In this document: in pieces, positions 33,465 to 58,098 of the stretch | How positions within the stretch are numbered: the stretch's first letter is position 1 | How the letters are laid out: each line of letters opens with the position of its first letter | Assembly (NCBI GenBank): GCA_963674735.2 | Contig: CAXXQS010000002.1 | Location: 96,001 to 160,000 of the forward strand | DNA length: 64,000 nucleotides | Direction: 5' to 3' | DNA from: Myxococcota bacterium | Lineage (GTDB): Bacteria > Myxococcota_A > SURF-8 | Notes under the pieces: generated by a model | The model's input: only the letters and a program-made list of their open reading frames with translations | What the model was told of the DNA's origin: nothing | Database searches by the model: none | Position numbers and translations under genes: made by a program

Positions 33465-34310
33465 ATGCCGGACCGGGAAGCCATCAAAAGGCGTAGCGCT
33501 TTGCGGCTGCGTGACGGATATTGGAGCCGAATCGACGACCAGGTCGCCGTCGAAGCGCCGCTGGGATTTGTCGTAAATGGTCGATACCTGACCACCACTC
33601 TGCGCAGCCCCGGTGACGATCGGGTTTTAGCCTTCGGCTATGCTTTCTCGGCCGGGCTCATCCAAACTCCCGATGACGTTCAATCCATGGAATTCACCGA
33701 CAATAACAGGGGCCGAACCGTTGCCCTCACCCTACGAAAACCGCTGGCGGAAAACCCATTCGGCGAACCCCGTCCCAGCTCTCAACCGGACGTGATCGCA
33801 GACATTGTCCAGCGTTCCTGCAAAGTCAAACGCCTGCTGCGCCTGAATCCGGAGCTGTTGGATCAGTGCCGCAACCAGATGGAAGACCGCCAACGCCTCT
33901 TCACGCCGACTGGGTCCACCCACGCCGCGGCGCTCTTCGACGAGTCGGGCCGACTGCTCGCGCTGGGCGAGGATGTCGGCCGCCACAACGCCTTCGATAA
34001 AGCCATCGGACAGGCGCTGCTGGACAAGACTCTGTCACGGGCCGCTATCGGCTTTTTGTCGTCGCGGGCGGGATTCGAAATGGTGGCCAAGGGCGTGGCG
34101 ATCAACCTGAGCGTTCTGGCCTGCACCTCCGGTCCGACCGGTCTGGCCATCGAACTGGCCGAAGCGGCCGGGCTGACGCTCGTTGCGTTTGTCCGTCCGG
34201 GCGGAATGACCGTTTTCAGCGGTGCCGCCCGCCTGGCCATCCCGGTTGAAACCGCAGCGGCGACACCGGCGGACATTTGCCGACCGGCGGCGAATGGAGA
34301 AGGAAAATAA
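33465..34310 (+). CDS. fdhD: Formate dehydrogenase accessory sulfurtransferase FdhD
   Basis: VAVEAPL, TGSTHAAA, EDVGRHNAFDKAIG, SSRAGFEMVAK, PTGLA; start ATG 33465 after GGAG. Confidence 0.9.
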   Translation: MPDREAIKRRSALRLRDGYWSRIDDQVAVEAPLGFVVNGRYLTTTLRSPGDDRVLAFGYAFSAGLIQTPDDVQSMEFTDNNRGRTVALTLRKPLAENPFGEPRPSSQPDVIADIVQRSCKVKRLLRLNPELLDQCRNQMEDRQRLFTPTGSTHAAALFDESGRLLALGEDVGRHNAFDKAIGQALLDKTLSRAAIGFLSSRAGFEMVAKGVAINLSVLACTSGPTGLAIELAEAAGLTLVAFVRPGGMTVFSGAARLAIPVETAAATPADICRPAANGEGK

Positions 34311-40901: not shown

Positions 40902-40977
40902 GGGGGTGTAGCTCAGTTGGTAGAGCGCTTGCTTCGCATGCAAGAAGTAGGGAGTTCGAATCTCCTCACCTCCACCA
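40902..40977 (+). tRNA. tRNA-Ala(CGC)
   Basis: GGGGGTGTAGCTCAGTTGGTAGAG...CTTGC-TTCGCAT-GCAAG...GTTCGAATC...CCTCCACCA. Confidence 0.95.
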
Positions 40978-40985
40978 TTAAAATC

Positions 40986-41065: not shown

Positions 41066-42196
41066 TCAGTCGCTCGATTCGGTATCGGTAGCGTCGTCGT
41101 CGGACTGTTTTTCCTCCACCGTAAACACCGCCTCCACCTCCTGCTGAACGTATTCCGGCAACAGGTGGGTATAACGGTCGGCGGTGGTCTGGATGCGGGT
41201 ATGTCCGGCGATTTGCTGGGCTAATTTCAGGTTCTTCTTCATAACCAGATGACTGATACAGTTATGCCGCAGGCCATGCAAGGTCATGCGTTGAACGCCT
41301 GCTCGTTTGCAGGCCGTGGCCAGGGTTCTGTGTAGGTTGTTCTGAAAAATCGGGTACAACTTTTCGTGCAATTCCTTTCCTTCCAAGGCCGGTTCGATGA
41401 AAGGTATCGCTATGGATGGAAGCGGGATGAATCGGGATCGGTCGGTTTTGGTGCTTTTACCCGCATCGCATGAATTCTCCTTTCCGTACACCCGAACCCG
41501 CCCTTTGGTTACATATACTTGCCGACGTGCGAGGTCGATATCACCTATATTCAAGGCCATGATCTCCCCGCGTCGCAGCCCACAAAAAGCCGCCAAGGCA
41601 AGTCCCGGCTGGCTGAATGGAGTCGCCAGTTTAATAACCTCCATAACGGATTTTATAGGAACGATGGGATTGGGTTTTGGACGGATGGTGTGCGATGCTT
41701 TCCAGGGGGATTTCATTAAATGCCCCGCCTTTTCCGCTTGGTTGAGAAGAGTCGAAAGAAAGACCGCAACATGTTCCTTCATCGATGGTTTGTCGATGGA
41801 TTCAAGCTCGTTGGATATCCGTTCTGCGGACAGCTTGTCCATAATGAAAACTTTTAATGTGTCAGGCATCCTTTTCCAATACTGTCGGTAATTCTCGGCG
41901 GTTGTCGGTGACATTTTCGGAAAACGCTTTTCTGCCCAGTCATCGTACCATTGCTCCAATGTCATTCGTCGCATGGTGATGACTGGCAGATCGTCGAGTT
42001 CTTTTCGCATCACCAATGCCCGCTCGTAGGCCTCCTCCATGTTATGACTGATGACTTTTCGTTTAACTTTCCCATCGCGGCGATAGTCGAACTGAAACGA
42101 ACCGGGGTCAATGTATCGCAGTTTGGCAGGCCATAACTGTTTGTTCATGGCCTCCAGTCGGGCATTCTCCCTTTTTGTGAGCGGACGTTTTTCCAT
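41066..42196 (-). CDS. Tyrosine recombinase/integrase
   Basis: GLRRGEI, K, HGLRH, AGH, RYTH catalytic residues. Confidence 0.93.
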   Translation of the reverse strand: MEKRPLTKRENARLEAMNKQLWPAKLRYIDPGSFQFDYRRDGKVKRKVISHNMEEAYERALVMRKELDDLPVITMRRMTLEQWYDDWAEKRFPKMSPTTAENYRQYWKRMPDTLKVFIMDKLSAERISNELESIDKPSMKEHVAVFLSTLLNQAEKAGHLMKSPWKASHTIRPKPNPIVPIKSVMEVIKLATPFSQPGLALAAFCGLRRGEIMALNIGDIDLARRQVYVTKGRVRVYGKENSCDAGKSTKTDRSRFIPLPSIAIPFIEPALEGKELHEKLYPIFQNNLHRTLATACKRAGVQRMTLHGLRHNCISHLVMKKNLKLAQQIAGHTRIQTTADRYTHLLPEYVQQEVEAVFTVEEKQSDDDATDTESSD

Positions 42197-42877: not shown

Positions 42878-42906
42878 GCTTAGTCAGCCAAACTTCTGGG
42901 TTGTTG
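42878..42906 (+). promoter_or_regulatory. Motif copy 2 (upstream of resolvase)
   Basis: GCTTAG TCAGCCAAACT TCTGGGTTGTTG. Confidence 0.8.
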
Positions 42907-42960
42907 AAGGGGATAACGTGCAGGTTTTCCCGCGAAACCGCAGGAGGATACCGCTGCCAG

Positions 42961-43611
42961 ATGCCGACGACGAAAAAGAATGAAAAAAAACGAGCTGGCC
43001 TGTATGGAAGGGTCTCCACAGCTAATCATGGTCAGGATGTCGGACTTCAAATCGAAGAATTGGAAACAGTTGCAGAACAAAGAGGCTGGCAGGTGGTCGG
43101 TACCTATATAGATGAAGGGGTGAGCGGTACAAAGCACGACCGGCCCGCCCTCGACCGAATGCTCACGGACGTTCGTGCCGGGAAAATCGACGTGGTGGCG
43201 GTTTGGCGGTTCGACCGGTTCGCCCGCAGTACTCAACACCTCATCCAGGCATTAGAAGAATTCGATTCACTCAATGTCGAATTTTTCAGTCTTCGAGAAC
43301 AAATCGACACATCCACCGCTATGGGTCGGGCAATGTTCACAATCGTTTCAGCTATATCTCAACTAGAACGTAGCTTAATACAGGAGCGCGTTCAGGCTGG
43401 GGTAAATCGTGCGAAAGCTAAAGGAATCCATTGTGGTCGTCCAGTCGTGGACATTGATGTCCGGCCTGCCCTCGCCATGCTTCGGGAGGGGCGACCCCTG
43501 AACGAAGTCGCCAACATTTTAGGCGTTGCCCGGAACACACTCCGACGACGGTTAATCGAGGCAGGAGAATGGCCTGTCCAAAAGCCTAACCAGGAAAAAG
43601 ACCCCGAATAA
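42961..43611 (+). CDS. Serine recombinase (resolvase/invertase) with C-terminal HTH
   Basis: YGRVST, DEGVSG, RPAL, DRFARS, ERVQAG, GRP. Confidence 0.92.
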   Translation: MPTTKKNEKKRAGLYGRVSTANHGQDVGLQIEELETVAEQRGWQVVGTYIDEGVSGTKHDRPALDRMLTDVRAGKIDVVAVWRFDRFARSTQHLIQALEEFDSLNVEFFSLREQIDTSTAMGRAMFTIVSAISQLERSLIQERVQAGVNRAKAKGIHCGRPVVDIDVRPALAMLREGRPLNEVANILGVARNTLRRRLIEAGEWPVQKPNQEKDPE

Positions 43612-44154: not shown

Positions 44155-44457
44155 ATGAAACCCCAAAAATCATCCCGACGCCCCCTGGTTACTGCCCAAC
44201 AGGTCGCCGACCATATCGGCGTCCACAAAGCCACCGTCTATCGGATGGTGACTGAAGGCCTCATCCCGTGCGTTCGAGCTGGGAGGGCGATCCGGTTCGA
44301 CCTGGACAGTGTCCTGCATGCGTTGGCGCATAACGAACTGGACGTAGATGTCGCCTGTCGCATCATTGCGAATGATGACAATTTATTTGATTCGTTCATG
44401 GAGAAAGTTCTAACCGAACACGAAAATGCTGCCAAGCAGGCGCAGGAAATGGACTGA
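44155..44457 (+). CDS. HTH_17 / excisionase-family DNA-binding protein
   Basis: LVTAQQVADHIGVHKATVYRMVTEGLIPCVRAGRAIRF; AAAGGAG RBS. Confidence 0.85.
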   Translation: MKPQKSSRRPLVTAQQVADHIGVHKATVYRMVTEGLIPCVRAGRAIRFDLDSVLHALAHNELDVDVACRIIANDDNLFDSFMEKVLTEHENAAKQAQEMD

Positions 44458-44525: not shown

Positions 44526-45890
44526 ATGTCTTTGTCTATTATTATACCCGGGAAATCGGGGAATCCTTCTGAAAAATCACGGTTGGCGTCAGGGTGTTGG
44601 GTTGAGTTGTCCCGTGCGTCAGCATCAACCAGGATGCCGGTCGATTTAACCCAAACCACCCTACCGGATGCGATGCTGGATTACGTTCACAAACACCCGG
44701 TCCGTCCCATTATTGTTGGCGAGGATGAGGATGTCCGGCAGGTTCACCCCGATCCGTATACCGACCTGTGCCGCACCCATTATCAGGCCGACGACAGCAC
44801 GTTGAAACATGCCGTCCGGTACCTTGAGCCAATCATCGACCTGGACTTCGATTCCGGCAAAAATCGGACTGAAAACTTCGAGGCCGCCGCCGATGCCGTT
44901 CGGAAATTGATGGCAGTGTTCGATGAACATCATGTACCGTACCGGGTGTATTTCTCCGGTAGCAAAGGGTTTCACGTTACTCTACCGGGCGTTACGTTCT
45001 GGCCTTACAACCATGAAAACCGACGGTTGGAATACGTCGAACGTGGCAACCACATCCTCAGGCGGATGGTTCGGGCAATCTGCAATGAGGCTGGAGTCCC
45101 GGAAAGCAACCGCAACACCAAAGGCAATGCTGGATGGGACGCCAGCCTGTACGATCTTCGGCGTATGGTGCGGCTTCCAGGTGTGCCACACTCGAAAAGC
45201 ATCATCGTCAGCCAGGAAATCCTCAGTCGGACGGCCACCATTTATAAGACCTGGTTGCCAACAAGCTGGGCAACGTGGTCGATCCGGGAGGTCGTCGAAT
45301 GGTCTACCGTAGTACGCCCTGTACCAGCATGGACCGACATATCCAGAAACAAATGGTTGGAGGAATTATGGGAACGGGCAGTGATTGCCAATGATGCTGA
45401 TGCCAATGACGAACCCGTCATTTATAAACCAGCCCTGATGAAGACCATGACGCCGTCCGCGCCCCACGCCGTAGCCGATTTAAGGGGCTATCCACCCTGC
45501 ATTACGAGCATTCGACAGGGTGACATCACGGTAATGGGATTGAGAAACCGGATCGGCATTGCGGTGTGTTCGTTTCACGCATCCACGGGGGAGACGGTCG
45601 AGGATGCCATTGCCACGATGCGATGCGTTCCCAGTCGCAGCCGGGACTTGGCTGCGGAGACCCGGTCACAATGGAATTCCATCACGACCAAGGCCGGGAA
45701 GCCGAAGGAGAATTACCGGTTCAGCAACCGGTCGTGCCGGACATTCCGGGGGGCGGGTGCGACCTGCACCGACAAGTGTCCCCTGCACACTGAGTTTATC
45801 AAGGGGGAGAAGACATCTAAAAGGAACGTTCCGTATACAAAACCCTTCGATTGGGGTACGGACGACGACACCGATCTGGGGGATGTCTGA
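44526..45890 (+). CDS. Archaeo-eukaryotic primase-polymerase with PriL-CTD-like C-terminus
   Basis: IDLDFD (motif I), YFSGSKGFH (motif II), DASLYDLRRMVRLPG (motif III); C-terminal PPCI...SC...C...CP. Confidence 0.8.
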   Translation: MSLSIIIPGKSGNPSEKSRLASGCWVELSRASASTRMPVDLTQTTLPDAMLDYVHKHPVRPIIVGEDEDVRQVHPDPYTDLCRTHYQADDSTLKHAVRYLEPIIDLDFDSGKNRTENFEAAADAVRKLMAVFDEHHVPYRVYFSGSKGFHVTLPGVTFWPYNHENRRLEYVERGNHILRRMVRAICNEAGVPESNRNTKGNAGWDASLYDLRRMVRLPGVPHSKSIIVSQEILSRTATIYKTWLPTSWATWSIREVVEWSTVVRPVPAWTDISRNKWLEELWERAVIANDADANDEPVIYKPALMKTMTPSAPHAVADLRGYPPCITSIRQGDITVMGLRNRIGIAVCSFHASTGETVEDAIATMRCVPSRSRDLAAETRSQWNSITTKAGKPKENYRFSNRSCRTFRGAGATCTDKCPLHTEFIKGEKTSKRNVPYTKPFDWGTDDDTDLGDV

Positions 45891-48325
45891 TGGGAATCAT
45901 CTACCGACACGTGTCCTCAGGCACCAAGGACGAACTGCTTTTACTGCCACCGGGGGCCGGAAAAACGTGGAGCTCTGTCCATGCGTTGGTTGCTAAAACC
46001 ACCACCCATGAACGAACGCTTTATGCCGGTGTTTCCCGCGACCTGTGTGAACAAGCTGCGAGGTGGGCGAACAAAAACGGCAACATCATGTCGGAAAAAC
46101 TACCCCGGACGGACAAGAACTGCCGGTGTGCGGGTGACGCCAATGCCCTGTCCGGCAAAAGCTGGTCGGCGGTGGAGTACGTGTGTAAAGGATGTGATAA
46201 CTTCGAGCCGGGCAAGCCTATCGAGTCCAGGTGTGAATGGTGGCGGCAGTGGGACGATCCCGACCATCTGACATGGGCTGTGACCCATCACCACCTGCCG
46301 TCGCAGCTGCCGTTCCGTTACCATAAACCGACTACTTTGGTATTGGACGAGGGAACTGTAGCGGCTTGTCTTGGATGGGCGGGCGGATGCGAGGACGGGT
46401 TCACGGACTTGGATTTGGAAAACCTTGCCCATTCGTTGCCCATCACCGACCCCGGCATCCATAGCTTTACGCTGGGGGATGTCCTGCCCGGTTCCGCCGC
46501 ACGGTTACTGATGCACCTTGCCGGGCGATTGCGGCAATGGGAAAAATCCGGGTCGGCTATGCTGAAGATGTTCCAGCGACTTCAACAAAACCATCACGGA
46601 AAAAACGTCATCGGCCCCGAAGCGGCTGGGTTCCTGCTCGGTCACGATACCGGAACGTCACTGGATAAAACGACGCTGACATTGTTGGAGGCCTTGCTAC
46701 ATGAACGCAGGGAGAACCTTCGAGTAGCTTCCACCATGCCCCGGAACAAACGGCACATCATCCGACCATTACCGGAACCGTCCACGTTCGATGAGGGACC
46801 GATCCCGCCGAACGTCCTGCAACCTCTGGTGAATGCCCTGGCCGCAGCCCGGAAATCCGTCGAACGACATGACGGGAAAGCCGGTGCGGTGCCCATGGCT
46901 CTCGATTTTCACGAGCCGGAGAAACTCAACCCTTTCTTCGCCGTTCGCATCCGAACCTTCACACCTCTAAATGTCCCGAAAAACTGCCGTATCGTGGCTT
47001 TGGACGCCACCGGCAACAAAGAACTGTTCGAGAAATGCGTCGGCAGGCCAGTCGAGGTCATCCGACTGAACGTGCCATTCAAAGGCACGGTCACTCAGGC
47101 TACGGATATGCGGTTGCCGATGGCCACGCTGACCAATGACAAAGGCACCGTGAACCGCTGGGTCGCCAACATCAAACCATACCTGATACGCCTTCAAGAA
47201 ATGCACGGAAAAGTCCTCGTCGTGACTTTCAAACGCCTGGCATTACGGCTTAAATCGGAACTGAAAGCCTGCAAGGGAATGGAATTTCGGTGGTTTTTCG
47301 GTGTCCGAGGTGAAGATTTCTCCGATTATCCCGTCCAGGTGACGATTGGATTCCCGATGTCTCCTCCCGATATGACCTACCTTGACGCCGCAGCCATGTG
47401 CCAGGGTGAGGACGTCGACACGACCTGGGAAAAACAGTGGCGGCCCTACCGGGTCGTCGGGCATGAAAACGACACTGAATCACCCGGTGTCGAGGTGATG
47501 GTGCCGGTCGATCCCCGCCTTAGATCGGTCTACGAGCTGTCCAGTGACCATGAATTCTACCAAGTTGCCTGTTCCAGGAACCGCATCCTTCGATTCAACC
47601 ATCAGTCTGTCGTGATGTCACAAGTGCCATTCCTGCCGGAATACCGAGTGCCGGTTCAGTTGACGACCGTCCAGGAGCTTCTGAACATCGGCCGACAAGA
47701 AGCCGTCTTGTCGGATAAGGTTCATCAACTGGCCGATGCTTTCCTGAACCGTCTGGGATGGGTGTCCAAACGGTTCCTGGAGGCCATTTTGACCGAAAAA
47801 CGGGATTCCGTTGTATTATCCGATGGTTGTGAATTAGCGGCGGGTACACTTATATTATATACTATAAGCCACCCCGCCGGTAATTATTCAGAACCCCATC
47901 ATCAAAAGCTTTTCACCCAACGAGCGGCCTTACGTTCCGGGATGGGTTTTTCGAACGGACTGGAACCCAGACGGTTCCGCGAGGCTTGGGCATCCTGGGA
48001 ATCCGCAACTCGGTGGGCAGGTTCGGATGTCGCCATCAAGGTCAAGGGTAAAGTCGGAAAGCCCTTTCAAGATGTCGTCTACGGCGACTTCAACCTGTGG
48101 CTCTGGGATAATCGAGAACTAGTTTCCCACCCCTACCTGACCGTCATGATGGACGGCACCGTCGTCGATGCCAATACCGTCGACCGTCTTCGGGATGTGA
48201 CGGATGTCCCCGGCAAACGCATCGTAGTGGATGTCAGCCGGGTCCTGCCGGACGGTTCGCTGGACGACACCGTAACATTCCGGCAATTCCGGCAAAGTCC
48301 TCAACAGCTTTGGGCACTCATTTGA
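45890..48325 (+). CDS. SF2-like helicase / replication protein
   Basis: TGATG coupling to the primase; PPGAGKT Walker A, LVLDE Walker B, LDAT motif III; Cys cluster between A and B. Confidence 0.7.
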   Translation: MGIIYRHVSSGTKDELLLLPPGAGKTWSSVHALVAKTTTHERTLYAGVSRDLCEQAARWANKNGNIMSEKLPRTDKNCRCAGDANALSGKSWSAVEYVCKGCDNFEPGKPIESRCEWWRQWDDPDHLTWAVTHHHLPSQLPFRYHKPTTLVLDEGTVAACLGWAGGCEDGFTDLDLENLAHSLPITDPGIHSFTLGDVLPGSAARLLMHLAGRLRQWEKSGSAMLKMFQRLQQNHHGKNVIGPEAAGFLLGHDTGTSLDKTTLTLLEALLHERRENLRVASTMPRNKRHIIRPLPEPSTFDEGPIPPNVLQPLVNALAAARKSVERHDGKAGAVPMALDFHEPEKLNPFFAVRIRTFTPLNVPKNCRIVALDATGNKELFEKCVGRPVEVIRLNVPFKGTVTQATDMRLPMATLTNDKGTVNRWVANIKPYLIRLQEMHGKVLVVTFKRLALRLKSELKACKGMEFRWFFGVRGEDFSDYPVQVTIGFPMSPPDMTYLDAAAMCQGEDVDTTWEKQWRPYRVVGHENDTESPGVEVMVPVDPRLRSVYELSSDHEFYQVACSRNRILRFNHQSVVMSQVPFLPEYRVPVQLTTVQELLNIGRQEAVLSDKVHQLADAFLNRLGWVSKRFLEAILTEKRDSVVLSDGCELAAGTLILYTISHPAGNYSEPHHQKLFTQRAALRSGMGFSNGLEPRRFREAWASWESATRWAGSDVAIKVKGKVGKPFQDVVYGDFNLWLWDNRELVSHPYLTVMMDGTVVDANTVDRLRDVTDVPGKRIVVDVSRVLPDGSLDDTVTFRQFRQSPQQLWALI

Positions 48326-48648
48326 TGGTAGTAACCCATATAAAAATTGCCGCCGTCTTGTCCTGTCAGGGTGTTTATAGCTTTGGCTTTATCTGGATCT
48401 ACATATCCCAACAGTTGGGCTAACAAACGAGCCTCGTTTTCGGTCGGCTTCAGCATAATCATCGACAAGCTGATATAGTGCCAAGGATTATCGATGTAAC
48501 GTTTAGCAAGTATCCCCCGTCTTCCTGGCTTTCTTTCCTCTTCACACCCTTCCAAGAATGCATAAACGCAACCGAGGGCGTATGCTTGGGGGGACTTCTC
48601 GTTTAGTCGTTCATTGATTTTTAGTACCATCTTCTTTCTTGAACTCAT
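48301..48648 (-). CDS. Stand-alone Cas11c-like protein (Cas8c/Csd1 C-terminal domain)
   Basis: AYALGCVYAFLE...PG...RY..NP...TLTGQDGGNFYMGYYHQ matches the recalled Cas8c C-terminal pattern YLLGRLFAVLE...RY...P...QGxFxxGYYHQ; AAGGAGG RBS. Confidence 0.65.
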   Translation of the reverse strand: MSSRKKMVLKINERLNEKSPQAYALGCVYAFLEGCEEERKPGRRGILAKRYIDNPWHYISLSMIMLKPTENEARLLAQLLGYVDPDKAKAINTLTGQDGGNFYMGYYHQMSAQSC

Positions 48649-48781
48649 AATGACCTCCTTTGGTTTTGAGTTCGGTCCTGTTTGGAACGAAAACCATTTC
48701 CGTTCCCGTCGGTTATTACCCCGACCGTGGTTAGGTCCACGGTCATGGGGGCAATCGTTCTGATTCTTGTGGTCATGTTGG

Positions 48782-49507
48782 TCACCCTACGTTACGAACC
48801 AACAGGAACGCCTCGAGGATCTGCAGGGCATCACGAACCTGTCCCCGAGCGTCGTTCCGGGCCAATTCCATCAGGATGTCGCCAACCTCGGCGTCCGTAA
48901 GTTCGTACCCTTCTTTTTGGGCGATGGTTCGAAGATATCCGCTCATCTGTTCATCCGTCAGGCGCTCGGTACGAACCTGGATGCAGCGCCCTCGAAGCTG
49001 AGCGTCTACATTTCCGATGTTGGCCGTGGTCAGGATGATCGGGTTTGGCGGCTCTTTTTCGAACCGTTCGAGGAGGAAGGTTTGTAAGCCCTTATGACGG
49101 TCGATTTCGTTGATGATATAAGGCCCGTACTGGACGCTCAGGTCGTTATAGACCGTGTCGATGGCGGATGCGCTGCTGGCGAAAGTAGCCGCCGACCGAC
49201 GTTGGATGAGGGTTTTTCCAAACACACCCTGGGATGGCACATCCCAGTTCTGGCATTGCTCACATTGGCCGCAGGGTTCGTAACCGTATTGGCGGTCTCC
49301 ATAACAAACCATGCTATGGGCAGTGATGTTGGCTAAGGTGGTTTTTCCGGTTCCGGAAGGGCCGTGAAGCAGAACGATCCGAGAAGAGCGATTTGCTACG
49401 AGCCGGGTCAGGATGTTTACGGCAACCGAGTTTCCGAACACCTCATCGAAGCGCCTAGGCGTGTGCTTCTGAGGGAAGGGCAGGTTCTGATGATTCTGTA
49501 GTAACAT
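48782..49507 (-). CDS. Short DnaX (clamp loader gamma/tau)-like AAA+ ATPase
   Basis: KHTPRRFDEVFG, GPSGTGKTT, C...PCGQCEQC zinc module, IINEID, LRGRC, GQVRDALQILE; ATG 49507 after GGAGA. Confidence 0.78.
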   Translation of the reverse strand: MLLQNHQNLPFPQKHTPRRFDEVFGNSVAVNILTRLVANRSSRIVLLHGPSGTGKTTLANITAHSMVCYGDRQYGYEPCGQCEQCQNWDVPSQGVFGKTLIQRRSAATFASSASAIDTVYNDLSVQYGPYIINEIDRHKGLQTFLLERFEKEPPNPIILTTANIGNVDAQLRGRCIQVRTERLTDEQMSGYLRTIAQKEGYELTDAEVGDILMELARNDARGQVRDALQILEAFLLVRNVG

Positions 49508-49563
49508 AACATTCTCCGTTCGTTTGCGGGCCCGTGCGGTCATCGCACAGGCCCTGTTGGTGG

Positions 49564-50481
49564 TTAGGCGTTATCGCCAGCGGTATTGGCGTCAGGATTA
49601 TTGCCGATGTTCGTGAACAGGCGTTCCGTGGCGGCCTTGGACTCAGTTTTCGCCTTCTTGATCATGGCCAAAAAGATCTCCGCCTTCTGCTCGATCTGGT
49701 CCAGATCCTCTTGTGGCATGCTGGAATCCACCCCCATGTCGATGGCTTTGTCCAACCACACATGGACCTTTTTCACGGGTCGGGGTGTTTTCTTAGCCTT
49801 CGTGTAGTTCGCGGTGCGCTTCTTGACCTCTTCCGCCATGTCGCGACAGCCCAGCCCTTTTTCAATGGCTAGGTCGAGCAATTGCAACCGCGTTTGAAGG
49901 TCTTTGACCTTGATGAGCTCTTCATGAACACCCAGCGGCACCAGCTCCCGTTTGTCCTCTGGGTACTGGTCCCACGCGAAGTGGACTCGGATGAGTGTCA
50001 TCATGGATTTTTTGCAAAGGCCGACCGTCTTCAGATGGCCCATCGCACAGAACCGGTTGAACGGATGGTTTTTACCCCGCCGTTTTCTATACTTTTCCTC
50101 GCTATTGTCGAAGAACAGCTCGGCGAACAAACCACCCAAGGCCAGTTTTGATTGGAAAGTGTCATTTCCATAGGCATCAATCCCCTTTTTCGCCTTTGCG
50201 AAGGTGATGGTTTCGTCGTTCTGCCCGTCGACCTTTTGTGGGTTGGCAGGAACATCTTCTGGGCTGGAAGCTTCCGTCAAGGCATCGCCGGAAGTTTCTT
50301 TGGTTTGCGCAGGATGTTCCTGGCCTTTTTTGCCATTATCACTTGGCTTGTTCTTCTTGGACTTCACGTCCATCTTCGTCCTCCTTTCTCCTGGTACGCC
50401 AGGCATGGGAGCGCTGGGTACTTGTTCTGCCGGGATCGGTTTGTTCGGGGCTTCAGACTCAGGCATTACTGTGTGTTCCAT
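49564..50481 (-). CDS. Hypothetical protein, helical DUF1016-N/ParB-like middle region
   Basis: GGAGG RBS; disordered N-terminus; HEELIKVKD..TRLQLL..AIEKGLGCRDM pattern. Confidence 0.5.
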   Translation of the reverse strand: MEHTVMPESEAPNKPIPAEQVPSAPMPGVPGERRTKMDVKSKKNKPSDNGKKGQEHPAQTKETSGDALTEASSPEDVPANPQKVDGQNDETITFAKAKKGIDAYGNDTFQSKLALGGLFAELFFDNSEEKYRKRRGKNHPFNRFCAMGHLKTVGLCKKSMMTLIRVHFAWDQYPEDKRELVPLGVHEELIKVKDLQTRLQLLDLAIEKGLGCRDMAEEVKKRTANYTKAKKTPRPVKKVHVWLDKAIDMGVDSSMPQEDLDQIEQKAEIFLAMIKKAKTESKAATERLFTNIGNNPDANTAGDNA

Positions 50482-50497: not shown

Positions 50498-51151
50498 TTA
50501 GGAACGTGTTGTGTCGCCACCAATGCGGTGGTCGACGATGTTTTTTAGGTGTTTGTTGGAATCAGCCACCGTGCAGCATTTGATACCGTCGGGTATGTCC
50601 TTCTCATTGTCGGTAGGGACCAGTTGGATGCTGCCGTCGCAGATTGGACAATCGGCCCATCGACCATTGATGAATCGTTCGACGGCAACGATGTCGGACA
50701 TTGGAACCGGTTTATAGCTCGTCAGCCAGCAGTCAGGATGTGCCCCCTTTTTTATGCCGACCTTTTTCAACAACTTGAAAGAGCGCCTTGTGATGCCGCT
50801 TGTTTTTCGGAACTCCTGCATATCGATGAGAGGGTAATCCGCGCCAACTCCCAGGCGATAAAGCCCGAGTTGCCTTTCCATCTCCTGCATGGTGGCATCC
50901 CTGATAACCCCGTTCTTTTGCCGAATACCCTTCGTAGCCGTAGGTTCCCACCGATCCAACGTGGAAAACCACACAGCCGGACGTTCTTGTTCATCTGTGC
51001 GCGCCACCGCTGGAAAGATGGCCTGCAAATCCATGATGCCGAGGAGTTTTGTTCCGAGTGTGTAATGCCATGCCTTAACAGGGGTTCCGTTCTTGGCAAG
51101 TAAAGGTTGAGTACTTGTCGTTGATGTCTTCTTATTGGCGTGGGTTTTCAT
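50498..51151 (-). CDS. Hypothetical protein, possible ADP-ribosyltransferase fold
   Basis: AWHYT...LLGI...PAVWFST..WEPTA; AAAGGA RBS. Confidence 0.5.
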   Translation of the reverse strand: MKTHANKKTSTTSTQPLLAKNGTPVKAWHYTLGTKLLGIMDLQAIFPAVARTDEQERPAVWFSTLDRWEPTATKGIRQKNGVIRDATMQEMERQLGLYRLGVGADYPLIDMQEFRKTSGITRRSFKLLKKVGIKKGAHPDCWLTSYKPVPMSDIVAVERFINGRWADCPICDGSIQLVPTDNEKDIPDGIKCCTVADSNKHLKNIVDHRIGGDTTRS

Positions 51152-51166: not shown

Positions 51167-51445
51167 TCAGTGAGATGAATGTTCCGGTTCCACCCCACCA
51201 TTGAGGTGGTCGATACGGTTTGCTAGATGGTCGATGACGGCGATCAGTCGCTCCATGGGAGCGTTTGTTGTCCCGCCTAAAATGGATTCATCGTTCAGGT
51301 AGGCCTGAGCGGCTTGACGCAGAAGCACCGTGATGGTGATTCCGTTCTTTTCGGCAGATTCTTTCAGTTGCCGGTGTAGTTCGGGTTTCATGAAAAGCGA
51401 GATACCAACCTGTTTTTTTCCGTTTTTTGTAGTTCGTTCTTTCAT
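51167..51445 (-). CDS. Ribbon-helix-helix (CopG/Arc-like) DNA-binding protein
   Basis: ISLFMKPELHRQLKESAEKNGITITVLLRQAAQAYL. Confidence 0.75.
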   Translation of the reverse strand: MKERTTKNGKKQVGISLFMKPELHRQLKESAEKNGITITVLLRQAAQAYLNDESILGGTTNAPMERLIAVIDHLANRIDHLNGGVEPEHSSH

Positions 51446-51485
51446 CGTGCTATCCTTTCCAAAGTGACGAAGTTTCGTTCGCCGT

Positions 51486-51826
51486 ATACCCCAACAACCC
51501 AGAACTTCTCCGCACTAAGCTGAAAAAATGCTGGAAAATGCTGATTGCGGCATTTTTCCTTTTCCCGACTTGATTTCATGGTCCCAATTCCGGTTGTCAT
51601 CTTCGTTTCCTCCATCCAACGGCGAATTCTTCTCGCCGATACCCCAACAACCCAGAACTTCTCCGCACTAAGCTGAAAAAATGCTGGAAAATGCTGAATG
51701 TGGTGTTTTTCTTTCAGTCGGGTTGATTTCATGGCCCCAATCCCATTTGTCATCATCGTTTTCCTCCATCAAACGGCGAATTCTCCTCGCCATACCCCAA
51801 CAACCCAGATTCCAATGGACCTAAGC
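51486..51826 (-). repeat. 153-bp tandem repeat (2 full units plus 1 partial) carrying motif copies 3-5
   Basis: ATACCCCAACAACCCAGA at 51486, 51639 and 51792; motif at 51492-51520, 51645-51673 and 51798-51826. Confidence 0.92.
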
Positions 51827-51981: not shown

Positions 51982-52881
51982 ATGGAGATAACCATCGATT
52001 CTACCAATGGATCCCGTGCAAACCTGCACTATGGGATGGATGCCCGGACAGCCTTGGATTCACTTGGCAGGACGAGGGTGAACTGCGTCGTAACTTCTCC
52101 TCCCTATTGGTTGCACCGGCAGTATGGGGCCGACCCACAGGAATGGGAGGATGGTTGGACTGGCGAGTTGGGCTTGGAACCCGACCCGGATCAATACGCT
52201 GCCCACATTGCCGAAGTGTTTCGTTCCGTTCGGCGGGTGTTACGAACGGACGGGGTCGCATGGATGGCTCTTTCGGACACCTTTATGTCAAACGAAACCG
52301 GATCACCATCTAAAATTAAAACCGGCATTCAGGGAAAACGCCTCTCTATTAATGATAGCTATCAAAAATCCACGGCCACCCACATTCGCCCGGCACCAAC
52401 TGATGTGGGCCTGCGATTTAAAAGCCTCGCCGGAATACCATGGCGGGTGGCGTTTGCGTTGCAGCGGGATGGATGGATTGTCCGTAATGAAATGATATGG
52501 CACAAGCCCGATTCCATGCCCAGTCGAGCCGCCGACCGATTGTTAGTCGCCCATGAAACGGTGTTTCTTATTTCGCGTTCGAGGAAGTATTACTTTAATA
52601 GGGACGCCGCCGCGAAGGAAGGTTTCCCCATCGAATTATCCAGGGACGTGTGGACGTTTAATTCTGGCCGGTCAAAAGGGCGTCATCATGCCGTTATGCC
52701 AACCAACATCGCTGAGGCAATGATTTCAATGGGATGCCCGAAAGGTGGAACAGTCCTTGACCCGTTCGCGGGGAGCGCAACCACGGGCGAGGCCACCATG
52801 CGACAGCATAGGAATTTCATCGGCATTGATTTGAATGAGGATTACCTGACGGAAGCCCGACAGCGGCTGGAACAGCTATGA
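51982..52881 (+). CDS. Orphan beta-class (N4-cytosine/N6-adenine) DNA methyltransferase
   Basis: VTSPPY precedes DPFAGSATTG. Confidence 0.9.
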   Translation: MEITIDSTNGSRANLHYGMDARTALDSLGRTRVNCVVTSPPYWLHRQYGADPQEWEDGWTGELGLEPDPDQYAAHIAEVFRSVRRVLRTDGVAWMALSDTFMSNETGSPSKIKTGIQGKRLSINDSYQKSTATHIRPAPTDVGLRFKSLAGIPWRVAFALQRDGWIVRNEMIWHKPDSMPSRAADRLLVAHETVFLISRSRKYYFNRDAAAKEGFPIELSRDVWTFNSGRSKGRHHAVMPTNIAEAMISMGCPKGGTVLDPFAGSATTGEATMRQHRNFIGIDLNEDYLTEARQRLEQL

Positions 52882-54801
52882 TCTTCTTTTAGGTTTCCTG
52901 CCCCCGCTCCTAGGCTCTTTGTGCCAACCTTTAATACGCTTCTCTGCATCTTTAAGGTAGTTGGCGTTGAGGTCGAATCCGATGTAATTCCTACGCAACT
53001 CCAAAGCGCCCCGTCCGGTCGTACCGGAACCACTGAATGGGTCCAGAACAACAGAACGACCGGAGCCATTGTTGTCCGGGCATTCACAATTAGGAGTCCA
53101 GCCTTTCATTAGCGGTGGATTTTCCTTCAGCCATTGGTCAAATTCATTACTTGAAACCCCGGTCAATCGGATCGCTTGTTCATGTAACAAACCGCCGGAA
53201 CGGAAATCCACATTCAGACCTTCACCGGCCCTTGGACGAGTGCCCTTACGTTCCACGACCCGTTTCCAAGGAGTACCGCAATGAGGGCATACCCCAAAAT
53301 CCGATGTGCTGGCCTTGATGGCCAGTTCCGGAAGTTCGGGCGGAAATACGGCAAAATGGTTGCCGGACTTGGCCCTGGTATTGATGGTCCATACCGACCG
53401 ACGATACCGTCCTACCAAAGCAGCCTTCCCGTTTCGAGAAAGCGCTTTCCTGGTTTTGTCGGAGTCAACCCATGGCTCGAGAATGGCGTACTGGTCGTAA
53501 TAGTAACCGGGTGCTTTACTCAGCAGGAACACATACTCATGGGAATGCGTCGGCCTGTCTAAAATGGATTCGGGCTGGATATTGTTCCGGTGCCACACGA
53601 CATCCGAACGGAGGTACCATCCATCAGCTTGCAATGCCAAAGCGACCCGCCATGGCATACCCATAAGATTGTATTCACGAAGGTTTTCCATACTGGCAGA
53701 GTATTCGCCAATTTCCTTTCGGCTGCGGACTATGGTCGTCGAATAGCAGTCGCCGAGGTTCAACCACACGGTGCCGTCATCACGAAGGACACGGCGGATT
53801 TCCCGAAACACATCGACAAGATGCTGAACGTATATGTCAGGACTGTATTCCTGGCCTAGATGCCCACTCCAGGCACCGCACAACCGGCACGTGGCGTTGT
53901 TTTCCTGTCGGCGGGCATTCTCGGGAGCGCCTTGTTTGTTTGTCTCGAGATATTCCCAATCATGGGGACAATCCGGATTCCCACCCCATATGACTGGCTC
54001 CGTACCAAAATCCCGTAATCCCCAATAGGGTGGCGACGTACACACGACATGAACGGATTTATCGGACAGTTCTTTCAGTGAATCCATCACGTGCTGACCG
54101 TACACGAGCTTGTAGGCAGGGTGTTCCACCCGTCGTGGTTTGTTCTTTCGGATTTTCAGTTCCGAGGTGGCCAGTCTCTTTCGATATGCCTGTAGGGCCT
54201 GATCAGCACGCATTTCCTCCTTGATGACCATGTCCAGGATTTCGGTCCGTTGCCCGTCCGGCAGACGGGATAGCTTAACAGCCTCTGGCATACTACGAAT
54301 TTGTCCGGCGGCCATAGCGTCGAACACATCCGGGGCTTTCCGTCTAACCTTGACTGCCAACCGGACGTTTTCGGCGGCGACACCGACACGTGATCCCGCC
54401 ACTTCCACAGCTTTGCCACCTTCGGCCAAATTTAGCCTAACCCCCGCTTTCCGCCTTTCGGCCGCCTTAACCTTTTCATGATCGAACAATTGAGCAGCGA
54501 CAGTGGCCCGCACAACCGTTGTCAGGTGGCGTCGGGTGACATTGAGGGAAATGACCAAGGCAAGAGCTTCGTCATCTGTGCCGTTAAATTCGCTGAAGTC
54601 CCTGGCATCCAGTTCAACACCGGCAATTTCACACGCCCTGTAACGGTTCCGACCGTCCAGTATTTTTTCCTGGTACAAGACGATTGGATGGTGGAGTCCA
54701 TTTTCACGGATGTCGTCGGCAAGGCGTTGTAGGTCTTCACCTTCAAGTAAAGGGAAGAGATTGGCGAAGGGGTGGGAAAGATGTTTGGTTGAAGTCAACA
54801 T
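52876..54801 (-). CDS. ParB-N domain fused to a beta-class DNA methyltransferase
   Basis: HPFANLFP..LADDIRENGL..ILDGRNRYRAC..NVTRRHLT; CTSPPY; DPFSGSGTTG. Confidence 0.88.
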   Translation of the reverse strand: MLTSTKHLSHPFANLFPLLEGEDLQRLADDIRENGLHHPIVLYQEKILDGRNRYRACEIAGVELDARDFSEFNGTDDEALALVISLNVTRRHLTTVVRATVAAQLFDHEKVKAAERRKAGVRLNLAEGGKAVEVAGSRVGVAAENVRLAVKVRRKAPDVFDAMAAGQIRSMPEAVKLSRLPDGQRTEILDMVIKEEMRADQALQAYRKRLATSELKIRKNKPRRVEHPAYKLVYGQHVMDSLKELSDKSVHVVCTSPPYWGLRDFGTEPVIWGGNPDCPHDWEYLETNKQGAPENARRQENNATCRLCGAWSGHLGQEYSPDIYVQHLVDVFREIRRVLRDDGTVWLNLGDCYSTTIVRSRKEIGEYSASMENLREYNLMGMPWRVALALQADGWYLRSDVVWHRNNIQPESILDRPTHSHEYVFLLSKAPGYYYDQYAILEPWVDSDKTRKALSRNGKAALVGRYRRSVWTINTRAKSGNHFAVFPPELPELAIKASTSDFGVCPHCGTPWKRVVERKGTRPRAGEGLNVDFRSGGLLHEQAIRLTGVSSNEFDQWLKENPPLMKGWTPNCECPDNNGSGRSVVLDPFSGSGTTGRGALELRRNYIGFDLNANYLKDAEKRIKGWHKEPRSGGRKPKRRS

Positions 54802-54815: not shown

Positions 54816-55583
54816 TTAAAATGGAATATCATTGTCATCCGGCTCTTGATATTCACTGGTAAGTTGAAACTTATCTTGGTTCTGGAGAAGCCACATCGAT
54901 CCAGTATCAGTAAGACAAAGGGCATAATATTCGTTTCCGTTGTAATCAGCGGATTCTTTCTGTTCGATGAATCCTTTCATTAGGAGTGATTTTGCAGCAA
55001 GCTGTCCAGCAATACGGGTGAAGCCTGACCGTTCCATATACTCGATAAATTGGTATTGTGGGACACCTTCAGGATTAAGAAGACTTTCACCCAAATTTAT
55101 CAAGGCAGACGATTCGTGCGGAGTAAGCCCCTCTGTTACTACTGCTGGTGGCAAATTAGAAAGTTTGGCTGATTTTGTTTTTCTTTCTAACAAGGCCTTC
55201 AATCTTTGGACAATACTGTCATTCAAAGCATTAAAATCACTAGATGAATCGGACTCATATGTGATGATGTTTTTATGACGAACATCAAAAGGAAATGAAT
55301 TGGAGCATTCCGTAGAACGAACAAGGCATACTCCTTTACCCTTGGCGTAGGCATAGCCAAGTTCATACCAAACATTTGGGTTGTCTTCGCTTATTTCAGC
55401 AAAACACACGTCCGATTCAGAAATATTCTTTTCAATTGTTTCTATCGGAATGTCAGCTGTTGGGTCTTGATCGACCCGATAAGCCTCCAGTCCAGCACTT
55501 TCGATTGCAGGTTTGAAGATGTCGTTATATCGTTTGTCATATTTTGCACCGTCGAACGGTTGGATAACAAAACATTTCGGCAT
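54816..55583 (-). CDS. Nucleoside 2-deoxyribosyltransferase-like domain plus C-terminal winged helix
   Basis: CFVIQPF, YRVD, NPNVWYELGYA, PFDVRH; AT-rich. Confidence 0.72.
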   Translation of the reverse strand: MPKCFVIQPFDGAKYDKRYNDIFKPAIESAGLEAYRVDQDPTADIPIETIEKNISESDVCFAEISEDNPNVWYELGYAYAKGKGVCLVRSTECSNSFPFDVRHKNIITYESDSSSDFNALNDSIVQRLKALLERKTKSAKLSNLPPAVVTEGLTPHESSALINLGESLLNPEGVPQYQFIEYMERSGFTRIAGQLAAKSLLMKGFIEQKESADYNGNEYYALCLTDTGSMWLLQNQDKFQLTSEYQEPDDNDIPF

Positions 55584-55608: not shown

Positions 55609-57111
55609 TTACACCCTCTCCTCCAAATCCCCGAGAATCCCCTCGATCTGCTCCAGGGCGGCATTCAGGTCGTCGGCAATCTCCTGGGCCAGGATGTTCG
55701 GGTCGGGGAGGTTGGCCGAGTCTTCCAGGCTCTCATCCCGAAGCCAGAAGATGTCGAGGGACACCTTGTCCCGTGCCAGCAGTTCCTCGTAGGTGTAGGA
55801 CCGCCACCGGCCTTCGGGGTTCGTTTCCGACCAGGTGGCCTTTCGGGTGTTCCGGTTGTCCGGCTTGTAGAGGTCCACGAATTCGGCAAGGTCGGACCGG
55901 ACCAGCCGTCGGGTCTTCAACGTGAAATGTTTGTTCGTTCGGAAGTCGTACACCCACAGCTTCTTCGTCCAGGCCGTTTTCGATCCGGGCTTCCGGTCGA
56001 AGAAGAGGACGTTGGCCTTGACCCCCTGGGCATAGAAAATGCCGGTGGGCAGCCTCAGCAGGGTGTGAACATCACACTCCTGAAGGAGTTTCCGTCTGAC
56101 CGTCTCTCCGGCCCCGCCCTCGAACAGAACGTTATCCGGCACGACGACGGCCGCCCGTCCGTGAATCTCCAGCAGGGACTTAACGTGCTGGACGAAATTG
56201 AGCTGTTTATTGCTGGTGGTCGTCCAGAAGTCGGGCCGGTTGTAGGAGATGGTTTCGGTGCTGGATTTGCCGTCGTCGGCAATGACGGTGATGCTGCTTT
56301 TCTTGCCGAAGGGCGGGTTCGTGATGACGACCTCGTAATGATCCGACGGTTCGTCACGTAGGCTGTCTTCACCACCCTTCAAGGTCGGTTCGTATTCCCC
56401 GTTTATGGGGCCAATGCCGTGGAGGATGTAGTTCATGGCACAGAGCCGGGCCACCCCGTCCACCAGTTCCACTCCGTGCAGGGCTTCATAGGCCAGGTGC
56501 TTCTTCTGGTCCCGGTCGAGCTGGTAGGTTCCGGCCAGATAGTCATGGGCAGCCAGCAGGAAGCCTCCCGTCCCACAGGCCGGGTCGATGATTCGTTCAC
56601 CGGGGGTCGGTTTAACACAGTCCACAATGGCCTGAATCAATGGACGGGGTGTAAAATACTGCCCGGCACCACCCTTCACGTCCTGGGCGTTCCGTTCAAG
56701 AAGTCCCTCGTAGGCATCCCCTTTCACATCGGCATCCATCGAGAGCCACTGCTCTTTGCCGATCAACTCCACCACCAACTGCCGCAGCTTGGCCGGATCC
56801 TGGATTTTGTTCTGGGCCTTACGGAACACCAGCCCCAGCATCCCTTTCTGTTTGCCGAGTTCGGACAGGAGCTTCCGGTAGAAGGCTTCCAGCTTGGTGC
56901 CTTCCATCTGGGGGTTGGCCAGGTCTTCCCACCGGTAGCCTTCAGGGATGGGCTGGTCTTTGCCGGTCAGCCTGGCCCGTTCATCGGCCATCTTGAGGAA
57001 CAGGAGGAAGGTCAACTGTTCGAGGTAGTCCTGATAGGAAAGGCCATCGTCTCGTAGGACGTTGCAGTAGGACCATAGTTTCTGGACGATTCGGGCTGAA
57101 TTATCGGTCAT
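55609..57111 (-). CDS. hsdM: Type I R-M methyltransferase subunit
   Basis: GQYFTPR, DPACGTGG, TNPPFG, LRLPTGIFY; start may extend to 57129. Confidence 0.95.
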   Translation of the reverse strand: MTDNSARIVQKLWSYCNVLRDDGLSYQDYLEQLTFLLFLKMADERARLTGKDQPIPEGYRWEDLANPQMEGTKLEAFYRKLLSELGKQKGMLGLVFRKAQNKIQDPAKLRQLVVELIGKEQWLSMDADVKGDAYEGLLERNAQDVKGGAGQYFTPRPLIQAIVDCVKPTPGERIIDPACGTGGFLLAAHDYLAGTYQLDRDQKKHLAYEALHGVELVDGVARLCAMNYILHGIGPINGEYEPTLKGGEDSLRDEPSDHYEVVITNPPFGKKSSITVIADDGKSSTETISYNRPDFWTTTSNKQLNFVQHVKSLLEIHGRAAVVVPDNVLFEGGAGETVRRKLLQECDVHTLLRLPTGIFYAQGVKANVLFFDRKPGSKTAWTKKLWVYDFRTNKHFTLKTRRLVRSDLAEFVDLYKPDNRNTRKATWSETNPEGRWRSYTYEELLARDKVSLDIFWLRDESLEDSANLPDPNILAQEIADDLNAALEQIEGILGDLEERV

Positions 57112-57144
57112 GTGATTTTCTGCTTTCAAGAAGAATTACAAAGA

Positions 57145-58098
57145 TCATCTGAGAGGATCCTCAACATTTGTACATGGACGTTCTCCTGACCCAATGTTGT
57201 GTACAACACACCGCATAGCGATATTATTTTCGATACTGTTATAGGTTTGCTTGAAGCCTTTCGGAAATTTAGTGTCCGGCGAATATATAATATTCTCAAA
57301 TTCAACAGACTTAAATACTGCATCTGTGAAGTTGGCACTTGAGATATTTACATCAATAAATTCGCACTCCCGGAATTGGGCACGCGTAAAATCTGCATGA
57401 CCAAAATGACCACCTTGAAATGTTGTTCTAACAATTTTAGCATTTTTATAACTTGATCCCACCGCCGAAGCTTCAATGAACTCCATGTCGGATATTTTAG
57501 CCTGATCAAAGATCGCATCGGATATCCAGCAATTTTCAAGAACTGATTTCTTCCTGCCTGAAAAAGGATGGGAAAATTGTGCACCAGCCATATCTGTTTT
57601 ATAAAATCGTCCGTGCCTAAGCGTAAGGACATCAAAAGTTGCATTTCGAAGATTTGCATTTGAAAAATCTATCGGGATTTCTGTCACAACAACTCCCAGG
57701 TTTGCTCCTTCTAAATTGATACGTGACATGTCAATTATTCTTGATTCTGTCCTGCTCAGACCTTTTTCTGTAGCATTTATTTCTTCCATTTTTATAAAAG
57801 ACTTTACGGCCAATTCGCGGATTCGAATATTGGCCTCTGGCTCACAATTTTGTATTTTGATTTTGTCGCTACAGTCACCCATATTGTATAGTTGAGACAA
57901 GATACGATTGTACGTATCTGTGTTCATGTAGTCTGCTTGCATATTTACCTGTGTCGCTTGCAATTCAACTTCTTTGTAAAATGCCTGCAATTGGTTTGAA
58001 ACAATCCTGTTCTGCCAAAGGAGTAATCCAGCTGCAATACTGGCAATAACGACAGTTAATGAAGCAAAAACAATCTGCCATTTCTCAAAATTCGTCAT
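57145..58098 (-). CDS. Membrane-anchored pentapeptide-repeat protein
   Basis: N-terminal TM helix; NLEGANL, FSNANLRNA, ADFTRAQF, ANFTDAVF repeats; AT-rich. Confidence 0.8.
   Translation of the reverse strand: MTNFEKWQIVFASLTVVIASIAAGLLLWQNRIVSNQLQAFYKEVELQATQVNMQADYMNTDTYNRILSQLYNMGDCSDKIKIQNCEPEANIRIRELAVKSFIKMEEINATEKGLSRTESRIIDMSRINLEGANLGVVVTEIPIDFSNANLRNATFDVLTLRHGRFYKTDMAGAQFSHPFSGRKKSVLENCWISDAIFDQAKISDMEFIEASAVGSSYKNAKIVRTTFQGGHFGHADFTRAQFRECEFIDVNISSANFTDAVFKSVEFENIIYSPDTKFPKGFKQTYNSIENNIAMRCVVHNIGSGERPCTNVEDPLR

Follow-up and report, generated by a model that had tools for sequence, protein, structure and literature searches.

In type I-C CRISPR systems, the small subunit Cas11c is translated from a start site inside the 3′ end of cas8c, and two copies of it line the belly of the Cascade complex, where they form a groove that holds the R-loop's non-target strand (O'Brien 2020, PMC7684278; Hu et al. 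preprint). In type I-B, the inhibitor AcrIB4 is found on Listeria mobile elements, shares 38% identity with the final 90 residues of Cas8b, and is reported to stop interference at a step upstream of DNA binding, with Cascade assembly still taking place (Katz et al., 10.1101/2023.06.24.545427). Its mechanism is listed as unclear in a 2026 review (PMC13131331), and a 2025 preprint (10.1101/2025.06.06.658234) proposes that AcrIB4 replaces Cas11 and names this as the first instance of subunit poisoning involving Cas11. An anti-CRISPR derived from the Cas8 C terminus, or Cas11, is by these accounts already in print for type I-B. Here we describe a stand-alone Cas11c-like gene encoding a protein of 115 residues (P0001), located on the minus strand at positions 48301 to 48648 of a 64,000-nucleotide stretch of a Myxococcota bacterium genome (assembly GCA_963674735.2, contig CAXXQS010000002.1, positions 96,001 to 160,000; hereafter the window), where it is carried by an integrative element. 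Profile and structure-library comparisons indicate that P0001 is very probably a homologue of Cas11c and the Cas8c C-terminal domain, with the 3′ end of a cas8c gene of type I-C as its ancestor. We predict, with a probability of roughly 0.4, that it is a Cas11-derived anti-CRISPR, a faulty decoy subunit that would poison type I-C Cascade.

The nearest described counterparts of P0001 are the native Cas11c subunits of D. vulgaris (7KHA and 8DEX) and N. lactamica (8G9S), with which it is collinear over nearly its full length and shares an all-helical prediction, conserved motifs, and a comparable size (115 residues versus approximately 120 to 130). It differs from them in that it is encoded separately, behind a Shine-Dalgarno sequence of its own, without cas neighbors, on an integrative element. 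AcrIB4, like P0001, is a small protein borne on a mobile element outside a cas locus, and its homology is to the C-terminal region of a Cas8 protein, the counterpart of Cas11. Compared by published description only, the two differ in that the activity of AcrIB4 has been demonstrated and in that AcrIB4 has 49 Listeria homologues and 38% identity to its cognate, whereas P0001 has no such homologues and is 23 to 29% identical to nine Cas11c segments. Since AcrIB4 derives from Cas8b and P0001 apparently from Cas8c, P0001 would represent an independent co-option. Two further inhibitors, AcrIB3 (a Cas5 homologue) and AcrIF3 (a mimic of the Cas8f helical bundle), also resemble a Cascade subunit or domain, although these are other subunits in other subtypes, and sequence homology between AcrIF3 and Cas8f is undetectable while P0001 retains detectable homology to Cas8c (10.1101/2023.06.24.545427). 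AcrIC3, AcrIC4, AcrIC5, AcrIC8, AcrIC9, and RacrIC1 share the presumed target of P0001, namely type I-C Cascade or Cas3; the modes described for these inhibitors are a block of PAM (protospacer-adjacent motif) recognition, Cas3 binding, and a repeat-like RNA, and the available portions of that literature describe none of them as a homologue of a Cas protein. The first-pass annotation of the window had named two precedents for inhibition by Cas-like proteins. AcrIB4 is indeed a mobile-element homologue of the Cas8b C terminus, whereas AcrIF25, given there as Cas7-like, mimics the Cas7-Cas7 interface and is not described as a Cas7 homologue in the available text of the review (PMC13131331). We found no type I-C counterpart of AcrIB4 in the accessible published literature, in which the 358 orphan cas genes of viruses tabulated by Katz et al. 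may include some of the cas8c type. That census used tblastn at an E value of 1e-4 (10.1101/2023.06.24.545427), a threshold that would miss P0001 because its best single-sequence E values range from 1e-3 to 1.

Homology between P0001 and the Cas8c C terminus was examined by profile comparison. Of 401 sampled genomes of the host phylum, 9 encode Cas8c, and the C-terminal 130 residues of these proteins were used as a first alignment. With hhalign, P0001 matched this alignment of nine Cas8c C termini with a probability of 89.4 to 91.2%, an E value of 2.1e-6, and a score of 39 to 41 over 97 columns; 200 shuffled versions of P0001 reached at most 19.9 (mean, 11.6; standard deviation, 2.4) against a real score of 41.0. 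A broader profile was drawn from small proteins of the Csd1 family, using 118 of the 120 listed among 1429 matches (two without the C-terminal motif were dropped); the 120 are mostly fragments on contigs of 1 to 4 kb. Against this 118-sequence profile the match was stronger (probability, 93.4%; E value, 2.6e-7; score, 43.2; 103 columns), with residues 6 to 112 of P0001 aligned collinearly to positions 6 to 122 of 125, and the maximum among 100 shuffles was 21.2. The real scores lie approximately 12 to 14 standard deviations above the shuffles.

The same family was recovered from structural and curated libraries. When all PDB chains were searched with phmmer, ten distinct sequences were obtained at an E value of ≤10, all ten of which are type I-C Cas11 or Cas8; the best three are Cas11c of the D. 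vulgaris type (E values of 0.0014 to 0.0016), in which residues 19 to 111 of P0001 align with residues 7 to 113 or 114 of chains of 116 to 124 residues. Three Cas8c models of PADLOC match P0001 through their C-terminal ends (E values of 3.1e-4, 3.6e-4, and 2.8e-3). The sole Pfam match at an E value of ≤10 is Cas_Csd1 (PF09709), at model positions 535 to 556 of 559 (E value, 0.027), and the sole NCBIfam match is cas_Csd1 (TIGR01863; E value, 0.47). P0001 falls below the curated cutoffs of both (13.6 bits versus 27 for Pfam and 8.9 versus 218.65 for TIGR01863), which a protein of 115 residues could hardly reach since these models span the whole Cas8c protein of approximately 560 to 590 residues. 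The alignment-free comparison of the ESM Atlas, whose matches the tool grades as leads only, placed three Cas8c/Csd1 clusters of approximately 120 residues at the top (scores of 0.85 to 0.86, with 176 to 184 of 256 features in common with P0001). A translated search of plasmid records yielded three matches spanning most of P0001, all of which are 3′ ends of annotated cas8c genes (E value of approximately 1), and one partial, unannotated match. The first-pass annotation had called P0001 a divergent Cas11c by eye, against a consensus, and had proposed a profile comparison with Cas8c/Csd1; that comparison gave a significant match, and the call is now backed by hhalign, the PDB search, PADLOC, and the ESM Atlas.

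The likeness includes core motifs of the helical bundle. Nineteen alignment columns are invariant across the nine Cas8c C termini, and P0001 keeps nine of them (L15, Y23, G26, P55, F102, G105, Y106, Y107, and Q109). These include the N-terminal Y-x-x-G motif, the conserved proline, and the C-terminal F-x-G-Y-Y-x-Q motif, and they lie within a protein that contains QAYALGCVYAFLEGCEEERKPGRRGILAKRYIDNPWHY and, toward its C terminus, GGNFYMGYYHQMSAQSC. The other ten columns are changed or deleted, including the arginine of G-R-L-F-A, a glutamine, a histidine, and a lysine, and the central helices are shorter than in Cas11c. The net charge of P0001 (+4) and its isoelectric point (9.0) are inside the native Cas11c range. 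An AlphaFold2 model guided by the Cas11c alignment, and thus not independent of it, reached a mean predicted local distance difference test (pLDDT) score of 66. In a Foldseek search with this model, the first eight matches were all type I-C Cas11c or Cas8c chains (E values of 0.04 to 0.8; the next match had an E value of 3.7). The structural side of the comparison proposed by the first-pass annotation is weak, with template modeling (TM) scores of just 0.41 to 0.47 for a model that already contains the alignment. Docking of P0001 with two Cas7c copies and the native Cas11c of a same-family genome (G002) scored 0.03 against a mark of 0.32, a result that is neither support nor counterevidence.

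Relatives of P0001 were sought in several collections. A near-length word search of 5.8 billion clustered proteins returned P0001 itself only, and an exhaustive phmmer search against 1.84 billion representatives yielded P0001 and two multirepeat artifacts (P0002 and P0003), with no Cas8c at an E value of ≤0.001. No P0001 relative was found at an E value of ≤0.01 when 400 further genomes of the phylum were searched in six frames, nor at an E value of ≤10 in an additional, "longer" search. Phage records gave one weak match (E value, 0.1), which lies in a 577-residue open reading frame of a complete type I-C operon (MT836695.1). A scan of viral contigs for solo Cas11c genes found three loci, all of them full-length cas8c genes within operons; since the scan pattern required [LRM]FA[ILV]GYY[HQ], variants like P0001 were invisible to it. 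Judged from these sequence comparisons, P0001 appears to lie far outside the sampled diversity of Cas8c, and, as a singleton, it forms no clade.

P0001 is a real protein-coding gene. Its start codon (ATG) is preceded, after a spacer of 5 nt, by the Shine-Dalgarno sequence AAAGGAGG (48654 to 48661, minus strand), while GGAGG occurs within the 20 nt upstream of just one other gene among ten neighbors. The open reading frame, its strong ribosome-binding site, and the N- and C-terminal motifs quoted in the first-pass annotation are all present as quoted. On the opposite, plus strand, no other open reading frame longer than 43 codons overlaps P0001, the 3′ end of which overlaps by 25 nt the 3′ end of a convergent gene for an 824-residue protein (45851 to 48325, plus strand). 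On its 5′ side, a gap of 133 nt containing two short hairpins (48684 to 48706 and 48723 to 48744) separates P0001 from a gene for a DnaX-like AAA+ clamp-loader module of 253 residues (48782 to 49543, minus strand; phrog_5846 clamp loader; E value, 2.5e-24). The G+C content of P0001 is 0.445, and that of its third codon positions is 0.466, compared with third-position values of 0.59 to 0.65 in neighboring genes and 0.74 in a core gene. The dip (0.44 to 0.48) is limited to positions 48300 to 48700, between flanks of 0.53 to 0.59, and P0001 consequently looks like a separately acquired low-GC cassette; the cas11c segment of G002 has a G+C content of 0.444, equal to that of P0001. We further simulated neutral substitution of the G002 cas11c segment down to 28% protein identity, which corresponds to approximately 289 substitutions in 393 nt; the frame stayed free of stop codons in 0.45% of 2000 runs, in which insertions and deletions were ignored. 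This simulation, the strong Shine-Dalgarno sequence, and the preferential survival of the core motifs jointly argue for selection on a folded protein.

The host genome (three contigs, 5.26 Mb, 94% complete) contains no match to the Cas8c family. A tblastn search of it with Cas3, Cas5, Cas8c, Cas7, Cas4, and Cas1 of the same-family genome G003 found only a reverse transcriptase-Cas1 (RT-Cas1) gene on another contig (E value, 4.6e-24). The window contains no CRISPR array, and P0001 is not nested in a cas8c gene or any type I-C operon, sitting instead between the AAA+ gene and the 824-residue-protein gene. The statement of the first-pass annotation that no cas locus lies in the window is correct and extends to type I-C cas genes genome-wide; its suggestion that P0001 poisons the type I-C Cascade of its host is contradicted for the present host, where the check for type I-C that it had proposed recovered an orphan array and no effector genes. 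This type I-C-like array (C1:1753038-1753399) consists of six 31-nt repeats and five spacers of 34 to 36 nt. The reverse complement of its repeat ends in GTGGATTGAAAC, and its first 18 and last 7 nt match the repeat of the complete type I-C locus of G002, the stem-loop alone being different. Where the cas operon would lie beside the array, there are only insertion sequence transposase genes (rve, DDE_Tnp_1, and HTH_Tnp_1). The G002-like repeat and the transposases at the cas position indicate that the lineage once had type I-C and lost its cas genes, and Cas8c is present in two of five same-family genomes.

The host also encodes a type III-B locus (C1, approximately 520.9 to 538.3 kb) with Cmr1, Cas10, Cmr3, Cmr4, Cmr6, a 964-residue RT-Cas1 fusion, a CorA-like gene, and three arrays of a 36-nt repeat. 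The first two of these arrays share an identical stretch of 106 nt, comprising two spacers that flank one variant repeat (521943 to 522048 and 526588 to 526693). A tie between P0001 and this locus was considered and rejected, as P0001 has no similarity to the open reading frame at the Cmr5 position. An RNA anti-CRISPR on the element was rejected as well, no type I-C-like solitary repeat having been found at ≤8 mismatches.

Under the decoy reading, P0001 would serve the element as an anti-CRISPR in cells with type I-C systems. It would take a Cas11c position on the Cascade belly, with the C-terminal domain of Cas8c and the Cas7 backbone as neighbors, and would give no support there to the non-target strand and the R-loop, so that interference fails; binding to Cascade and inhibition are both steps that we infer. 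This reading is favored because P0001 shows the same anatomy as AcrIB4, in that it is element borne and stand-alone, keeps the core of the helical bundle, and has lost conserved polar residues. The orphan array and the Cas8c genes of same-family genomes, which make type I-C relevant to the lineage, also count in its favor. As the type I-C cas genes are gone and only the orphan array remains, nothing is left to inhibit in the present host; P0001 would be idle there and useful to the element in hosts that bear type I-C, and any anti-I-C activity would be a matter of the lineage's past or of other hosts in which the element resides. The interpretation offered by the first-pass annotation is thus sustained for homology and mobile context and not for action on the Cascade of the present host.

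Several observations weigh against the decoy reading, beginning with this absence of a type I-C Cascade in the present host. P0001 is a singleton, so that conservation, the ratio of nonsynonymous to synonymous substitution rates, and a recurring link to anti-CRISPR (acr) or anti-CRISPR-associated (aca) genes lend the reading no support. Near P0001, no gene of a known acr or aca kind was recognized with the general libraries Pfam, PADLOC, and PHROGs, none of which is specific to anti-CRISPRs, and P0001 ends a row of replication-type genes and is not in an obvious antidefense cluster. None of 40 host spacers and none of the 92 type I-C spacers of G002 and G003 matches the element. Support from fold prediction is weak: the single-sequence AlphaFold2 model, although all-helical, has a pLDDT of 47.9 and is too poor for a fold search, and the low TM scores given above come from the alignment-guided model. 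Finally, the neutral simulation presumes that divergence followed capture; if P0001 was captured recently from an unsampled, very divergent cas8c, the bulk of its divergence arose while it was under selection as part of a Cas protein, and its open frame is weakly informative.

Other explanations were weighed against the same evidence. The position of P0001, last in a same-strand row with the DnaX-like module and two proteins of no known family and converging on a pair of genes for a primase-polymerase-like protein and the 824-residue protein, would fit an exapted Cas11c whose bundle is used in the element's own DNA transactions, as an accessory binder of single-stranded DNA or R-loops or as a regulator, with no role in CRISPR; its partners could be the primase-polymerase-like protein, the 824-residue P-loop protein, the AAA+ protein, and the ParB-like protein encoded nearby. 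A host without type I-C Cascade, a charge and isoelectric point within the range of native Cas11c, itself a binder of the non-target strand (O'Brien 2020, PMC7684278), and an open frame with a strong Shine-Dalgarno sequence, which argue for some function, all agree with such a use. We nevertheless consider it rather unlikely, as the ORF-limited GC dip and the hairpin-containing gap look like a separate cassette and not like a coevolved operon member, neither the AAA+ gene nor the 824-residue-protein gene yielded a relative with a P0001-like neighbor, and no precedent for such use of a Cas11 was found in the accessible literature. A specific version, in which P0001 is an accessory that binds single-stranded DNA or R-loops for the element's primase-polymerase, P-loop protein, and clamp-loader-like module, is more radical than the decoy reading and seems improbable to us. 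The lack of relatives in every collection searched, the loss of 10 of the 19 invariant residues, and the absence of partner proteins from the host would be expected of an inert relic, a 3′ fragment of cas8c picked up by the element and open by chance or youth. The sequencing runs that contain this stretch, three DNA runs from a single study with no RNA run listed, fit such a relic too. That the 115-codon frame is intact at such low identity, an outcome rare among the neutral runs, that a near-perfect Shine-Dalgarno sequence stands at ideal spacing where GGAGG is rare among neighbors, and that the retained residues are the core motifs of the fold and not a random subset make this distinctly unlikely.

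The same loss of invariant residues, with the shortened middle of the protein, speaks against a working Cas11c supplied in trans to the type I-C Cascade of some host. Homology to Cas11c, which is normally a separate polypeptide (O'Brien 2020, PMC7684278; Hu et al. preprint), would allow it. Such a subunit would, however, be redundant because native cas8c already encodes Cas11c internally, the element carries neither a further cas gene nor an array nor a solitary repeat, and in Listeria, overexpression of native Cas8b is reported to be without effect whereas the diverged homologue inhibits (10.1101/2023.06.24.545427); we regard this explanation as very improbable. Chance likeness between small helical proteins, in which case P0001 would be no relative of Cas11 at all, could be argued from the weakness of each single-library score in Pfam, the PDB, and PADLOC, from the exhaustive phmmer search without a Cas8c match at an E value of ≤0.001, and from the low TM scores of the alignment-guided model. 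It is very hard to reconcile with the convergence of independent libraries on one family and one collinear place, with hhalign scores far above those of the shuffles, and with the alignment in register of both terminal motifs.

The element that carries P0001 spans 43,173 bp and reaches 20 kb past the window end. It is bounded by an exact 51-bp direct repeat, of which attL (40929 to 40979, plus strand) covers the last 49 nt of a tRNA-Ala(CGC) gene (40902 to 40977, plus strand) and 2 further nucleotides, and attR lies outside the window (C2:180051-180101). A tyrosine integrase gene adjoins the tRNA gene (41066 to 42196, minus strand; Phage_integrase; E value, 5.8e-19). The earlier placement of P0001 on a mobile element is borne out by these three features. 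Between the integrase gene and P0001 lie a serine recombinase or resolvase gene (42901 to 43611, plus strand; Resolvase; E value, 1e-47), a 100-codon open reading frame whose translation has, by eye, the look of an excisionase-type helix-turn-helix protein (44155 to 44457, plus strand), the primase-polymerase-like gene (44526 to 45890, plus strand; LigD_Prim-Pol, E value of 0.0025; phrog_16345 primase, E value of 1.8e-14), and the gene for the 824-residue protein, which belongs to no known family in Pfam, PADLOC, or PHROGs scans, contains a P-loop-like GAGKT motif by eye, and has two distant matches in the 400 other genomes of the phylum. Upstream of P0001, the minus-strand row continues from the AAA+ gene to genes for a 305-residue protein of no known family, with a disordered N terminus and a ParB-like helix-turn-helix by eye (49564 to 50481), a 217-residue protein of no known family (50498 to 51151), and, at its head, a 92-codon open reading frame with a ribbon-helix-helix-like translation by eye (51167 to 51445). 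The idea that the 217- and 305-residue proteins are diverged Cas5 and Cas7 of a hidden Cascade was dropped, as it found no support in PADLOC, Pfam, PHROGs, or the PDB. No clamp or polymerase gene was recognized near the AAA+ gene, which encodes a truncated module 23 to 33% identical to the N-terminal part of the housekeeping DnaX of relatives (approximately 600 residues); among 60 relatives it matched only frames of housekeeping DnaX size, in 58 of them and at 23 to 38% identity, and a search of genome contigs found no related locus for this gene and hence no comparative context.

Beyond the minus-strand row, the divergent gap of 830 nt between the row and a methylase gene contains a 153-nt tandem repeat (2.2 copies with 88% matches; 51479 to 51809), which could be an iteron, origin-like, or regulatory region of the element. 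Two orphan methylase genes follow 3 to 6 kb from P0001, an N6_N4_Mtase (51982 to 52881, plus strand) and a ParB_N-N6_N4_Mtase fusion (52876 to 54801, minus strand). A type I restriction-modification operon occupies positions 55609 to 62446 of the minus strand (hsdM, 55609 to 57129; hsdS, 58095 to 59597; hsdR, 59594 to 62446). Embedded between hsdM and hsdS is a gene for a pentapeptide-repeat protein of 317 residues (57145 to 58098, minus strand); pentapeptide-repeat proteins can mimic DNA. Between the ParB_N-methylase gene and hsdM lies a gene for a 255-residue protein (54816 to 55583, minus strand) that weakly resembles a TIR (Toll/interleukin-1 receptor) effector in PADLOC (E value, 3.1e-5) and a nucleoside 2-deoxyribosyltransferase in Pfam (E value, 1.9e-4). 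The distal half of the element (C2:160001-180000) encodes very large proteins of secreted type, of 1225 and 2797 residues (local positions 2571 to 6248 and 11467 to 19860); the latter has FGE-sulfatase, Lcl_C, and disintegrin-like domains, and a separate gene encodes a 275-residue FGE-sulfatase protein, an unusual cargo for an integrative element. No capsid or conjugation families were seen among the element open reading frames scanned. Elsewhere in the window, a gene for a formate dehydrogenase-like molybdopterin enzyme (34394 to 37126, plus strand) is split by an in-frame TGA (35444 to 35446) in the context C-A-R-T-*-H-A-P, which is probably a selenocysteine codon and not a break; an FdhD gene lies upstream (33258 to 34310).

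We tentatively regard P0001 as a plausible and testable candidate which, on the decoy reading, would be the first Cas11c-derived anti-CRISPR against type I-C. If this is true, Cas11-type subunit poisoning would have at least two origins, one in Cas8b (AcrIB4 of Listeria) and one in Cas8c (P0001), and mobile elements would have in it a general means of using parts of the immune machinery against that machinery. It would also mean that such genes can diverge past the reach of ordinary searches, and it would add a new mode of action for an inhibitor of type I-C, which is described as a compact system for large-deletion genome editing. The gene on the element, together with a host that has a type I-C array and no type I-C cas genes, would offer a concrete case of how CRISPR conflicts between element and host end.

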